From Octopus sinensis (taxonomy: Eukaryota): a DNA stretch of 64,000 nucleotides. Within the stretch, counting starts at the first letter, position 1. The number at the start of each line of letters is the position of its first letter. The notes under the pieces were generated by a model that saw only the letters and a program-made list of their open reading frames with translations, was not told the origin of the DNA and searched no databases. Shown here one piece after another: positions 18,770 through 38,775 of this stretch. The position numbers and the translations under genes are program-made. The DNA lies in the NCBI RefSeq assembly GCF_006345805.1, contig NC_043004.1, positions 103,168,001-103,232,000 on the forward strand. The letters run 5' to 3'.

Positions 18770-18814
18770 CATGCGTTGACGAGAGGCAATTACCTTGAAA
18801 CTATAGTCCGTATG
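18770..18814 (+). ncRNA. Type I hammerhead ribozyme (U3/G8 core variant)
   Basis: Stem I CATGCG/CGTATG, core TTGACGA, stem II GAGG(CAATTA)CCTT, GAAAC, palindromic stem III ACTATAGT, and GTC cleavage triplet at 18806-18808. Confidence 0.85.
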
Positions 18815-19119
18815 TAGTACTCGGGTCTTCGAGGGGGATGACCTCCCTTTGCAAATAACACAAGGGCACTGAGATAGTGTCTAAAGTCCTTCTGGTGACG
18901 TTGATCGCCTGGGGCTAAAAGCATCAGTAACACCCCACCCCCCAGTGGCTAGCCACATTCAGATGGCTAATACCCCTTACGTTGTCGAGCGGTTACTGTT
19001 TATATCTCGTTCAGATTATTATGTTTTCAGACAGTTTTTCTACATCAGTGACAGTGGTTACTGTGAAAAACGTTATATATTATTTGCAAGGGACTCCTTC
19101 ATCGAAGACCGGTGCTTAC

Positions 19120-19164
19120 CATGCGTTGACGAGAGGCAATTACCTTGAAACTATAGACCGTATG
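19120..19164 (+). ncRNA. Second hammerhead copy, cleavage triplet mutated GTC>GAC
   Basis: Identical to 18770-18814 except GAC at 19156-19158. Confidence 0.75.
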
Positions 19165-20757
19165 CAGTACTCCGGTCTTCGAGGGAGGATGACCTCCCTT
19201 TGCAAATAACACAAGGGCACTGAGATAGTGTCTAAAGTCCTTCTGGTGACGTTGATCGCCTGGGGATAAAAGCATCAGTAACACCCCCCCCCAGTGGCTA
19301 GCCACATTCAGATGGCTAATACCCCTTACGTTATATATATATATATATATATATATATATATATATATATATATATATATAGGACTGATTGATTGATTCT
19401 AGTTTCAGCTTATGAGCTGTGGCCATGCTGGGGCACCGCCATATATAATTATTACAAATTTGGATTTGGCCTGAAATAGGAGTTGCGGTTCTATTGGTAA
19501 AATCCTAAATTTGTAATAACATTATAAATGATACTGTTTACATTGCATTAGTAAAATGTAAAATAGTAAATGTGTCCTGCTAATCTGGAATACTTATTAT
19601 TTCCTAAGTTCTTTAAATATATATATATATATATATATATATACATGTATGTATGTATGTATGTATGTATGTATATACGCATACACACAATATATATATA
19701 TATAGATGTAGATGCATACATACATGCACACATATATAAATATGTGAGCGTGTATATATATATACGTACTCACACAAAGTGCATATGAATATATAAGTAT
19801 ATTCATAAATATACAATTAAACGCGGTTTTCCTTCAACTTTAAAAACTGGTAACTTTTCATGCTTTGTTAAGATATTAGCAATTTCTTAGCGGTTCTTAA
19901 ACTAAGACTCGTATGAAAATTCTCATAATCTATGTGAATTCGGTTGCATTTTCTATCAGACTGCATCAGCTGTTTCTTTTCGGTGCCATGCTGGCAGATT
20001 AAACAAATTGTGCAGAGGATTCAAGAAAGTAGAAATTGCTTCATCACTTCAATGCTCTCACTGTGCTGTAGAGTTTTCATTCTACGCAAGTCGACATATG
20101 CTTTGAATACGTAAATATTCATTAGTGTAAGAAATGATGTTTAAATGTTCATGCTGCGTTTCATGTATTAATTACGCACACACACGTATACACCCGCACA
20201 TACACACACACACATCCACATTCACACTCTCTTGTTTGCTCACGCGCACACGAGCACACACACTCACCTATACATAAATACATAAATACATACATACATA
20301 CACACACACACACAAACATGGATTCAAAAATCGTGCGCATATGTGTGTATATATTTATATGTGTGTGTGTATGTATACACACATATATACACAAACTTAC
20401 ATACATGCGTACATACATACATACATACATAAATACTTACATACATACATACATACATACATACATACATACACACATACATACACACATACATACATAC
20501 ATGCATACATACATACACACATATATACATACATACATACATACATACATACATACATACATGCATACATACATACATACACACATACATACACACACAC
20601 ACAAACACAGACAGACACACACACCACCCTAGTCATAGTGATAATTATGGTTTTCCTTTTGGGTAAACATTGCATACCGCTGTCTATATTAATTTTCCAT
20701 ATCTATCAATCTGTCTGTCTGCCTCTGTGTGTGTGTGTGTGTGTGGTGTGTGTGTGT

Positions 20758-21207
20758 AGGCGCAGGAGTGGCTGTGTGGTAAGTAGCTTGCTAACCAACC
20801 ACATGGTTCCGGGTTCAGTCCCACAGCGTGGCATCTTGGGCCAGTGTCTTGTTCTATAACCTCGGGCCGACCATAGTCTTGTGAGTGGATTTGGTAGACG
20901 GAAACTGAAAGAAGCTCGTCGTATATATGTATATATATATACATATACATATATATATATATATATGTGTGTGTGTGTGTGTCTGTGTGTGTGTGTGTGT
21001 GTGTGTATTTGTGTGTCTGTGTTTGTCCCCCCAACATTGCTTGACAACCGATGCTGGTGTGTTTATGTCCCCGTAACTTAGCGGTTCGGCAAAAGAAACC
21101 GATAGAATAACTACCAGGCTTACAAAGAATAAGTCCTTCGGTTGATTTGTTCAACTAAAGGCGGTGCTCCAGCATGGCTGCAGTCAAATGACTGAAAGTA
21201 ACAAAAG
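20758..21207 (+). mobile_element. SINE family A
   Basis: Full-length copy with head AGGCGCAGGAGTGGCTGTGTGGTAAG. Confidence 0.9.
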
Positions 21208-22226
21208 TGACTCAAGGCCCGACTCGCTCGGCTTTGAGTCATTTTTGCAGTATTCTGAAGATTAATAGATATATGGATGATGTATATACGTATAAATGCA
21301 TATATACTCATATATTGAGTACACACTGTCTGTCGGTCTGTCTGTCTGTCTGTCTCTCTCTCTCTCTCTCTCTCTCTCTCTCTCTCTCTCAATGTCACAC
21401 ACACACACACGCCCAGAATCGACTCCAGTAATACACTGGTATTTATTTATTGTCTTTGTTCCTCATCTCTACACTGCTTACTCAAAAGACTTCTTTATAG
21501 ATTCTTTATAGACTTTAACCGGTCTGTCTGTTAATAAAGTCTAAAAGTCTGTATATTGTTGTTCTTCGATTAGTTTTATACCCAATAACCCTTACAAACT
21601 AACAATAGTCTAACAATTCCGATAGCTATCCTTATTCTCTGTAACTGTTACATCGTCCCAGTTCTTATTCATTAAACCTCAAATGAGAACCAGGGCAAAT
21701 TATCCAAACTATTTTTACAGATTAGGAGGGTCAAAAAGAAAAAAAAAAACAGAAAAGAAAAAAGAAGTTACTAATTCAGACATCATGTTGCCAGACATCG
21801 GACTTGTTGTTCTTTAGTCTCACGTGAACGCTAATTAAATAAACCATAATTAAAAGCCTTCTCCCGTAGTGTCCATCCTACATTTTTAACGAGATTCTAG
21901 GATTACGTAAACTAGTATGCCCTTCCTTGTTATGACTGTGGCCTTTGATTTGAGGGATATATAGCTACCATTTCTTCAAAGCTGAACGGCCACGAAGAAG
22001 CCTGCCTTATTGGTAAGAAGAGGTTCTCTTATTGATTAGCAGTAGGCTCTACTCTGATTAGCAGAGGCTCTGAAGAAGTGTTTCTCGACATTTTACCCTT
22101 GCGTGATCCTTAGAATAAATTACATTTCTCAAATAACCCCTGCACAAAAGAATTATATACTATATCTTTCTCATATCTTTTCATCGTAGTTCACGTGGTA
22201 AATATCATATATATATATATATATAT

Positions 22227-36879: not shown

Positions 36880-37505
36880 ACCTTCCCTTAGGCGCCGTAT
36901 CACCTTCCTTGAGGAATGTGGTAATTTTGGGTTGTGATGTCTGTTGCTTGTTGACCTTAACTCACTGCTGACTCGTTCACTTGGCAATTTCCATACGGAC
37001 TTTATAGTACCTCTAATTGTATCAGTTTTCTTCCAAAGCGCTAGGACATCCGGCCAGAATATGTTTCAGAGTACAAAATTATGTTTGACACCGCTTGTAA
37101 GAAAGGGTTTTGCTTTCCCTAGATTTTAAGGTCATTTGGGAGTTAACAAGAGGTTAGCTACAGCTTTTCTTAGTCAGTATTCGCAAGTTATCTTCAGTAT
37201 AGTGGTTGCTCTAATGTTTGGTCCCACTGTATCCCACTGTCCCTGGCAAGCAAACTCCATGACTTTTACGTAGCGATTTTCCCTTGTTCAGGCTGTCCGT
37301 ACTATGAGCCTTCTCTTGCCCCTGGCATTGGCATTGCTTCACTTCTCGATGTAGTGGTTGCCAAATTTTAACTGTCCACCACAGACCATGCCAACAATTT
37401 CCTAGTGTTTCCCGTATGCCCCATCTTCTTTCCGAGGGCTTCCACTTCCTGCCTTTCTTTTGGTTCATCTTCGTATATCTGATTCTCTCATGCCCTTGAG
37501 AAATG
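36880..37505 (-). mobile_element. Degraded HERO/R2-group non-LTR retrotransposon, C-terminal fragment
   Basis: Minus strand gives KKGRKWKP, CQGQW (compare QQGAW) and LKHILAGCPSALEEN*YN*R (compare LEHILSxCxxALxxGRYxWRH zinc knuckle). Confidence 0.6.
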
Positions 37506-38448
37506 TAATGTGTGTGTGTGTGTGTGTGTGTGTGTATTCTTCTATTTGTTTCAGTCATTGCACAGCCATGTGTTGTACAATCACAACTTTGAGGGATTTG
37601 ATCAAGCGAAACGTCTCCAGTATTAATATGTTCTTTTTATCTATCGTTCTTTTTATCGCAACTGCTAAGTTACTAGAACTTCAACTCTCCAAGATTGACA
37701 GCCAAACGGTGGCATACACATGCACACACATGCATATGCACACATACATACGTACATACATACATATATGCATACATACATACATACATACATACATACA
37801 TACATACATACATACATACATACATACATACATACGTACGTACATACATACATACATACACAGATTAGGTGTGATTTTGTGGATACGGTCATATTTCTGT
37901 GGAAGACGTTACACATGATTAACAGCTGCCCAGAAATATCAACAAAGTACTACGTCCCTTTACGATACGACGTTACAAGAAAAAAGTCAGTTCTGGAAGA
38001 AATGTAGAGAATACTATGTTATTGAATTCATACACAAACATCAACACAAGGAATATTGGTGGAACATTCTCGTTCAAACATTTCCGAGAAGCGTAAACCT
38101 AAAAGGCTGGATATTGTTGTTTGGAACAGGCACAAACGTTTACACTGTAATAGGAGATAGATGTTCTGCTGATGAGAGCATGGAGATATAGATATATAGA
38201 TATGTAAACATGATAATAATAGAATATAGATAAAAATAATAATAAATCTCTGAACGAGATGTAAACAGTAACCGCTCGACAACATAAAGTATACTAGCCA
38301 TCGCAATATGGCTAACCACTAGGGGTGGGTGTTACTGTAGCTTTTTAGCCCCAGGAGATCATCGTATCCAGCTGGCTTTGGACACAATTTCTGTGCCCTT
38401 ATGATATTTGCAAAGGGAGGTCATCCCCTCTCGTAAACCTAAGTGATA

Positions 38449-38493
38449 CGCACGGACTCCAGTTTCGAGATTATTGTCTCTTGTCAACACACG
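38449..38493 (-). ncRNA. Type I hammerhead ribozyme (U3-A8 core variant), inverted copy
   Basis: Minus strand reads CGTGTG-TTGACAA-GAGA(CAATAA)TCTC-GAAAC-TGGA-GTC|CGTGCG. Confidence 0.75.
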
Positions 38494-38730
38494 GTAATCA
38501 CGGGTTTTCGATAAGAGAGACCTGTTTGCGAATATCTATTTAATGTTTTTCCCAGTAACCACTGTCACTGATTTCGAAAAACAGTCTGAAAGCGCTTACT
38601 GTTTACATCTCGTTCAGAGATTTATTATTGCTTTCAGACCGTTTTTCGAAATCAGTGACAGTGGTTACTGGGAAAAACGTTAAATAGATATTCGCAAACA
38701 GGTCTCTCCTCATCGAAAACCGGTGATTAC

Positions 38731-38775
38731 CGTGCGTTGACAAGAGACAATAATCTCGAAACTGGAGTCCGTGCG
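38731..38775 (+). ncRNA. Type I hammerhead ribozyme (U3-A8 core variant)
   Basis: CGTGCG-TTGACAA-GAGA(CAATAA)TCTC-GAAAC-TGGA-GTC|CGTGCG, with GTC at 38767-38769. Confidence 0.8.

Follow-up and report, generated by a model that had tools for sequence, protein, structure and literature searches.

A repeat family of Octopus sinensis, probably a non-autonomous Penelope-like retrozyme, with three paired states of the hammerhead 3-8 core pair among its subfamilies

The 64,000-nucleotide (nt) stretch of Octopus sinensis DNA analysed here ("the window"; assembly GCF_006345805.1, contig NC_043004.1, positions 103,168,001 to 103,232,000, forward strand) holds two insertions, at 18444-19332 (locus 1) and 38241-38941 (locus 2), of one non-coding mobile repeat family with a unit of ~355 nt and thousands of copies. 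The unit carries a type I hammerhead ribozyme motif, in which U3·G8, U3-A8 and C3-G8 are subfamily states at one core position. The family is probably a retrozyme without long terminal repeats (a non-LTR retrozyme), that is, a non-autonomous Penelope-like element whose subfamilies carry C3-G8, U3-A8 or U3·G8 at the 3-8 pair.

Hammerhead motifs at the two loci

A scan of both strands of the window for relaxed type I hammerheads recovered exactly four motifs, those reported in an initial annotation of this DNA: two with the core TTGACGA at locus 1 and two with TTGACAA at locus 2 (Table 1). The family motif has the core YUGANRA / GAAA / NUH at a three-helix junction with stem I open. Position 3 is U in all window copies, and the 3-8 pair at locus 1 is a wobble, not a Watson-Crick pair. 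The initial annotation reported each core in both copies of its locus; the cores do match, but the two copies at a locus belong to one insertion and are therefore not independent evidence. At 19156-19158, in the second locus 1 copy, GAC stands in place of GTC and breaks A15.1-U16.1. Loop 3 at locus 2 is TGGA, whereas its own subfamily has the palindrome TGCA; with this private change the predicted dimer helix drops from -11.1 to -2.0 kcal/mol.

The two loci are ~80% identical, and pairing in stem I and the rod is kept between them, as claimed. A long rod capped by the motif is predicted at both (z -5.6 at locus 1, -4.6 at locus 2), and 0 of 200 shuffled sequences were as stable at either. An Rfam search of the whole window gave no hammerhead among the matches listed (150 of 169), and searches with three short stretches (locus 1, locus 2 and a C3-G8 copy) gave no hammerhead match at E up to 10. 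U3 was suggested as a possible reason for the family being overlooked; since Rfam misses a C3-G8 copy too, U3 does not explain an oversight.

A non-coding repeat family

Two anchors outside the motif have 3,463 and 383 matches in the 2.72-Gb genome, to which all genome-wide counts refer, and control anchors have 0. Exact core patterns with a CAAWWA loop occur 397 times with U3/G8 and 300 times with U3/A8 (reversed control 0). Fifteen cut-to-cut monomers measure 336-359 nt and are highly self-paired (z -3.3 to -6.2). Like known non-LTR retrozymes, the family consists of non-coding tandem units within the range of 170-400 nt, each of them bearing a type I hammerhead. The subfamilies have no conserved reading frame in common, no open reading frame (ORF) with reverse transcriptase (RT) and GIY-YIG domains lies inside the element, and in 160 loci no Penelope-like ORF is joined to a family copy. 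ARAGORN found no tRNA in the window; no separate search for A and B boxes was made. Of 20 fetched C3 loci with a CAAWWA loop, 17 belong to the same family (73-87% identity), two are distant relatives and one is unrelated. The stem II loop, whose window form CAAT(T/A)A was likened to the CAAAUA loop of Schistosoma in the initial annotation, is CAAATA in five subfamilies.

Subfamily states of the 3-8 pair

Among 73 exact C3 matches with a CAAWWA loop, 72 have G8 and one has A8; the single C3·A8 match is a truncation junction and was rejected. Because such exact patterns presuppose a core, a second sample was drawn by an anchor outside the ribozyme. This sample comprises 80 loci in the first 82 Mb of contig C1, excludes the locus-1 lineage and includes 50 loci that cover the motif: 34 are C3-G8, 7 U3-A8, 6 U3·G8 and 3 other single copies. 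The other anchor, which samples the locus-1 lineage, gave 16 U3·G8, 5 U3-A8, 2 C3-G8 and 1 gapped (n = 24). Eight of 100 listed matches of the 3,463-match anchor, at loci already sampled, were left out. With U·G counted as a pair, positions 3 and 8 are paired in 34 of 34 aligned copies and in 47 of the 50 ribozyme-blind loci. No C3·A8 subfamily occurs in the family samples; C3·A8 never founds a subfamily.

Both window cores are subfamily states and not private mutations. Locus 1 belongs to subfamily S1 (U3·G8, loop 3 TATA). That the family is defined by U3, or hidden by it, is not supported: at family level its consensus has C3, which the initial annotation had named as adverse to its proposal, and C3-G8 is the commonest state with the anchor that excludes the locus-1 lineage. 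The family is mostly canonical C3-G8, and U3 marks large sub-lineages within it. The proposed covariation between U3/G8 and U3-A8 keeps the pairing but is a one-sided change between wobble and Watson-Crick pairs, not a two-sided one.

At the neighbouring position, C replaces U4 in 14 of the 50 ribozyme-blind loci, always with C3, and no U3 copy with C4 was seen among sampled loci. The U4C variants (L273, L294, L295, L331, L342, L347, L351, L359, L360, L363 and L366) are subfamily-level episodes. A further U3·G8 subfamily (L282, L292, L335, L338, L346 and L349) has a 2-nt loop 3 (ACTAGT) and a GUU cut triplet, and derives from the U3-A8 lineage S6.

Two mutational origins for these states were rejected. 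CpG decay does not explain U3-A8 at locus 2, because A8 is a subfamily state there; it accounts for single copies such as L360, whose sister arm keeps G8. Adenosine-to-inosine editing was rejected as the source of A8-to-G8 changes because A>G (50) and T>C (46) are equal in source lineages and leave no editing signature.

History of the core on trees

Trees built without the ribozyme columns still group copies by ribozyme haplotype. (L149 was left out of the 56-row trees, and four unassigned copies out of the subfamily comparison.) A single U3·G8 clade and a single U3-A8 clade are both rejected by the approximately unbiased (AU) test (p below 1e-6); a single U3 clade is not rejected (p 0.22). 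A 109-copy tree was also built without the motif; L317 and L350 were left out of its 111 aligned rows, of which 37 came from earlier samples, most of them picked by ribozyme patterns. On this tree the change from C3 to U is placed on two branches, both of them short and both also carrying G8-to-A; resolution is poor here, and a single event may underlie the two. On U3 internal branches position 8 then changes five times, and on C3 branches it never changes by itself (p 0.07).

U3·G8 appears to have arisen about three times from U3-A8, in the locus-1, CTGG-loop and ACTAGT-loop lineages, with at least one reversion. The distant relatives are all C3-G8, as are the oldest copies, which suggests that the canonical pair is ancestral on a weakly supported root. 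Short conversions between subfamilies may also have occurred; in one case a stepwise intermediate (L099) argues for point change rather than conversion.

Selection on structure and core

The paired structure is kept far beyond what relatedness predicts. In 34 copies scored at 30 named pairs, 92.4% of cells are paired, compared with 32-46% in slid controls and 72% in simulations on the fitted tree with fitted site rates, none of which (0 of 400) reached the observed value; the tested structure was drawn from the same sequences, so the test favours that structure. Two-sided pair changes number 16, against 9 simulated (p about 0.01). By part, pairing p is at most 0.003 for stem I and the rod, 0.005-0.05 for loop 3 and 0.02-0.03 for stem II; in the rod alone, two-sided changes are not in significant excess (p 0.31). 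Of the covariation that had been put forward for checking, the part at the 3-8 pair alone is only marginal (p 0.03-0.07).

Ten core positions (G5, A6, A9, G12-A14, 15.1, 15.2, 16.1 and 16.2) show no change on internal branches of the 109-copy tree, where only 88 of 273 outside columns are equally constant. Inserted copies decay alike in the core (14 changes in 575) and elsewhere (354 in 13,027), implying that selection acts on the source RNAs. These results uphold the selection claimed for RNA structure and for the core of source lineages; selection on catalysis itself, also claimed, is what we infer from them. An earlier figure of 0 core hits in 355 source substitutions was discarded as biased, most subfamilies having been picked by core patterns, and was overturned because the unbiased sample shows change at C17 and, as described above, at U4.

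Of 13 subfamilies, 12 have a self-complementary loop 3, and that of the remaining one is nearly so. Subfamily sequences are TATA, TGCA, CGCG, CTAG, CCGG, CG and CTGG, and TCGA and TA were found in the wider sample. The family thus combines a weak helix III with a palindromic loop, as expected for activity in dimers (PMC4209133, PMC6765202), a combination broken privately at locus 2.

Insertion anatomy

Outward 3' ends in the family fall at two places ~42 nt apart, reference positions 324 and 362-368 (3'-end clustering was measured on loci up to L098). Of the insertions with two outward 3' ends, 40 of 48 have one short and one long end. Insertion flanks are AT-rich or (TA)n; where they are not TA, 19 of 21 insertions share at least 8 nt, compared with 14% of 194 shuffled pairs. 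A tail at one end, an inverted 5' arm, partial tandems and AT-rich targets together fit a non-autonomous element of Penelope-like type; tail, inverted arm and partial tandem are described for Penelope-like insertions in PMC8557442. Locus 1 comprises an inverted arm and 1.9 direct units, and locus 2 two inverted units.

Table 1. Coordinates of the two insertions and their hammerhead motifs in the window
Feature	Position	Strand	Description
Locus 1 inverted arm, 5'-truncated	18444..18650	-	outer end is the long 3' terminus with ~42-nt tail; no hammerhead
Locus 1 direct arm, ~1.9 units	18652..19332	+	350-nt spacing; ends at short 3' terminus in (TA)n run
Locus 1 predicted rod	18720..18868	+	stem I extended on both sides of motif; z -5.56
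Locus 1 hammerhead, first motif	18770-18814	+	core TTGACGA; stem II/loop GAGG/CAATTA/CCTT
Predicted cut, first locus 1 hammerhead	18808	+	after GTC
Locus 1 hammerhead, second motif	19120-19164	+	core TTGACGA; GAGG/CAATTA/CCTT; GAC replaces GTC, predicted inactive
Locus 2 target-site duplication, left copy	38229..38240	+	11-12 nt
Locus 2 inverted arm	38241..38591	-	one unit plus tail; subfamily S5 (U3-A8)
Locus 2 hammerhead	38449-38493 (read 38493-38449)	-	core TTGACAA; GAGA/CAATAA/TCTC; loop 3 TGGA
Locus 2 direct arm	38592..38941	+	ends at short 3' terminus
Locus 2 hammerhead	38731-38775	+	core TTGACAA; GAGA/CAATAA/TCTC; loop 3 TGGA
Locus 2 target-site duplication, right copy	38941..38952	+	11-12 nt

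Proposed mode of replication

From the genome sequence we infer a cycle that begins with the transcription of a tandem insertion. Two hammerheads in the transcript would pair through their palindromic loop 3 and release a monomer by self-cleavage at the predicted site; ligation likely turns the monomer into a circle, and uncut multimers may substitute for circles. A reverse transcriptase/GIY-YIG endonuclease borrowed from a Penelope-like element would copy the family. This protein likely makes nicks in both strands of AT-rich DNA, about 10-14 nt from each other, and reverse transcription would be primed at two internal sites ~42 nt apart, one per strand; such two-strand, two-site priming would explain why insertions have inverted arms, a tail at one end and a duplicated target. 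Selection, likely confined to the source RNAs, would tolerate any paired 3-8 state and not C3·A8, and with U at position 3, position 8 could toggle between A and G. The U3·G8 form is predicted to be slower yet sufficient.

Several observations weigh against this scheme. A pile-up of 5' truncations at the cut site was considered and rejected: 5' ends fall there (-3 to +4) in 3 of 220 arms, so cut linear templates have left no genomic trace. The 3-8 pair alone is marginal once relatedness is taken into account (p 0.025-0.035 for pairing, 0.07 on the 109-copy tree), and core constancy does not reach significance (p 0.11) on the two steps with U3·G8 from start to end. The root is weak, and one 56-row tree needs 4 state changes where the other needs 7. 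None of 80 Penelope-like loci examined, some of them overlapping, holds an autonomous element sharing family sequence. An anole element is reported to insert in vitro without hammerhead activity (PMC11167929), and 8 of 9 Xenopus retrozyme dimers are reported not to have cleaved (bioRxiv 10.64898/2026.07.22.740005). A cut site is crossed by 173 of 220 arms, and two by 28, in a sample biased towards loci that carry the motif; taken with the lack of a pile-up, this implies that the templates were circles or uncut multimers, between which the genome cannot distinguish. Contigs assembled from four runs presumed to be RNA cover parts of several subfamilies; as contigs do not show ends, strand or level, they carry no weight here.

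The arms that cross one or two cut sites, and the lack of significant constancy on U3·G8 steps, would also be expected if the U3·G8 hammerheads of this same element were dead or nearly so, and those subfamilies spread through uncut multimers or through cutting in trans by other subfamilies while the fold was kept for protein binding. A Watson-Crick G8-C3 pair, whose role is treated in PMC8495972, is described as needed for activity (PMC8495972, PMC11167929). We nevertheless consider this rather unlikely: in U3·G8 lineages many substitutions have left the other core positions, the loop 3 palindrome and the pairing of the stems intact, the descendants of one such lineage return to U3-A8 with the core intact, and C3·A8, as noted, founds no subfamily.

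Divergence of the source lineages

Outside the motif, subfamily majorities differ by a p-distance of 0.23 (S8 to S1) to 0.42 (S9 to S2). Half the divergence between copies within an insertion is about 0.022-0.027 in basal and 0.006-0.011 in terminal subfamilies, from small age samples of 1-23 loci per subfamily. Change in the source lineages thus appears to outpace the decay of inserted copies more than tenfold.

This disparity invites a second alternative, raised for such motifs in PMC4209133 and PMC7229834: the RNA circle would be copied RNA-to-RNA, as in viroids, and the genome would from time to time capture copies from a rapidly evolving RNA population. We think it distinctly improbable that the family is such an RNA-level replicon, changing more than ten times faster than host DNA and leaving a fossil ladder on which the core walks between C3-G8, U3-A8 and U3·G8 and back, with U4C only on C3-G8. 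The ladder-like trees would fit, since their internal path from old to young spans a p-distance of 0.23-0.42, or about 1.0 substitution per site, against an age difference among copies of only about 0.01-0.04. The same pattern also arises, however, from fast serial retrotransposition, of which ~10,000 rounds would suffice by an estimate from general error rates; it is the simpler cause of the fast divergence. The window scan found no minus-strand ribozyme, the balanced substitution spectrum is expected of any stationary lineage, and, apart from the small size of the age samples, recombination could stretch the ladder.

Autonomous Penelope-like elements in the genome

Young autonomous Penelope-like elements are present in the genome, namely a family encoding a 781-aa RT/GIY-YIG protein and a second with open frames of up to 717 aa. 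At the 80 Penelope-like loci mentioned above, family matches are separate neighbouring copies. It is highly improbable that the two loci represent solo pseudo-LTRs, or truncated ends, from an autonomous Penelope-like element and not a self-standing non-autonomous family. In favour of that reading, their anatomy is that of pseudo-LTRs, vertebrate retrozymes are derived from pseudo-LTRs in a 2026 preprint (10.64898/2026.07.22.740005), and the GIY-YIG candidates inspected are a small fraction of about 5,000. Against it, pure ~355-nt units follow one another in direct tandem without an intervening ORF, none of 160 loci joins a copy to a Penelope-like ORF and, as stated, the family conserves no reading frame.

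The 781-aa family (L191-L205, e.g. L195:2221-4563, plus strand) ends in (TA)n and carries a minimal hammerhead with a U3-A8 core and a palindromic ACATGT loop (near L195:5440), to which the genome has 518 exact 32-nt matches. The second family (L215-L240) has two alternative 3' ends and, 3' of its ORF, a hammerhead-like motif with a U4C core read by eye as CCGAAGA. Other hammerhead-like repeat motifs, unmatched to the window units, lie at L193:283 and 6218 and at L205:1895 (minus strand); they have a long stem II with C3-G8, or U3-A8 with AGGG/CCCT. In the window itself, a degenerate Penelope-like fragment (RT end and GIY-YIG; 40831-41439, minus strand) lies ~1.9 kb from locus 2 and is not joined to it, and a short sequence near 41570 looks like a family motif but was not scored as one by the family profile.

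Other repeats in the window

An abundant, dispersed repeat of ~450 nt with an internal microsatellite, probably a family resembling short interspersed elements, occurs on both strands at 8873-9308, 10938-11333, 20746-21207, 22226-22699, 52201-52659, 53004-54106 and 60631-60849. A 485-aa open frame with a YADD motif (31220-32674, plus strand) is likely an RT fragment of a non-LTR retrotransposon. Just left of locus 1, at 18006-18395, lies a repeat with an internal duplication of ~100 nt that resembles a 102-nt tandem at 6447-6648.

Relation to known systems and significance

The U3-A8 swap is already known. Natural U3-A8 covariation and a tolerated, natural U4C have been in print since 2011 (Perreault et al. 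2011, PMC3088659), as both occur here, and U3-A8 in Schistosoma Penelope-like elements since 2014 (the Cercyon variant, about 1,300 hits; Cervera and de la Peña 2014, PMC4209133). For U3 with G8, a natural example is a halophile (halovirus) insertion variant (PMC7151607). That variant has a 2-nt insertion and is salt-adapted, whereas the octopus family shows a plain wobble in hundreds of young copies with about three origins. What is new is the existence of repeated U3·G8 wobble subfamilies and of source lineages that diverge, as it appears, over tenfold faster than copies decay. A literature search found no paper that describes this family or treats U3·G8 as a state recurring among subfamilies, although older hammerhead work and supplements may list variants or rates.

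The family likely adds a member to the non-LTR retrozymes, one whose set of core variants is unusual. It shares with the metazoan members a non-coding unit of ~350 nt, a type I hammerhead with a two-pair helix III and a tetraloop, tandem dimers and trimers, and a highly self-paired monomer; circles and repeats of 350-390 nt are reported for mussel, and repeats of 330/350 nt for axolotl (PMC7229834; Cervera and de la Peña 2020). It differs in having U3-A8, U3·G8 and U4C as subfamily states and dispersed insertions with full Penelope-like ends. Metazoan non-LTR retrozymes are derived from Penelope-like pseudo-LTRs in the 2026 preprint cited above. With the pseudo-LTR hammerheads of the Cercyon type it shares the U3-A8 core, the palindromic loop 3 and predicted dimer activity. 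Those hammerheads are minimal, whereas this one is of the canonical 6-bp/4-bp type with a conserved loop 2 and stem I bulge, lacks an ORF, and shows all three paired states on one family tree. Two internal priming sites and nicking of both strands have been measured for Poseidon of the green anole (PMC11167929). As in Poseidon and other Penelope-like insertions, two 3' ends define a tail (30-40 nt there, ~42 nt here) and insertions have AT-rich targets and an inverted 5' arm; the octopus family differs in being non-autonomous and in usually having one end of each kind (the 40 of 48 insertions above).

The prevalence of paired short and long ends, together with the target duplications, provides genomic support, on a non-coding substrate, for the two-site, two-strand priming that a Penelope-like protein shows in vitro. 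If the family were an RNA-level replicon, its subfamilies would chart, in order and in natural sequences, the epistasis within the active site of a ribozyme, and its genomic copies would be evidence that an animal retrozyme replicates as viroids do. All three paired states and U4C occur here within a single family and genome, in dated subfamilies on nearly the same scaffold. These natural sequences allow tests of how much catalysis a retrozyme needs, of whether U·G is a viable bridge between C-G and U-A, and of what causes the fast divergence.

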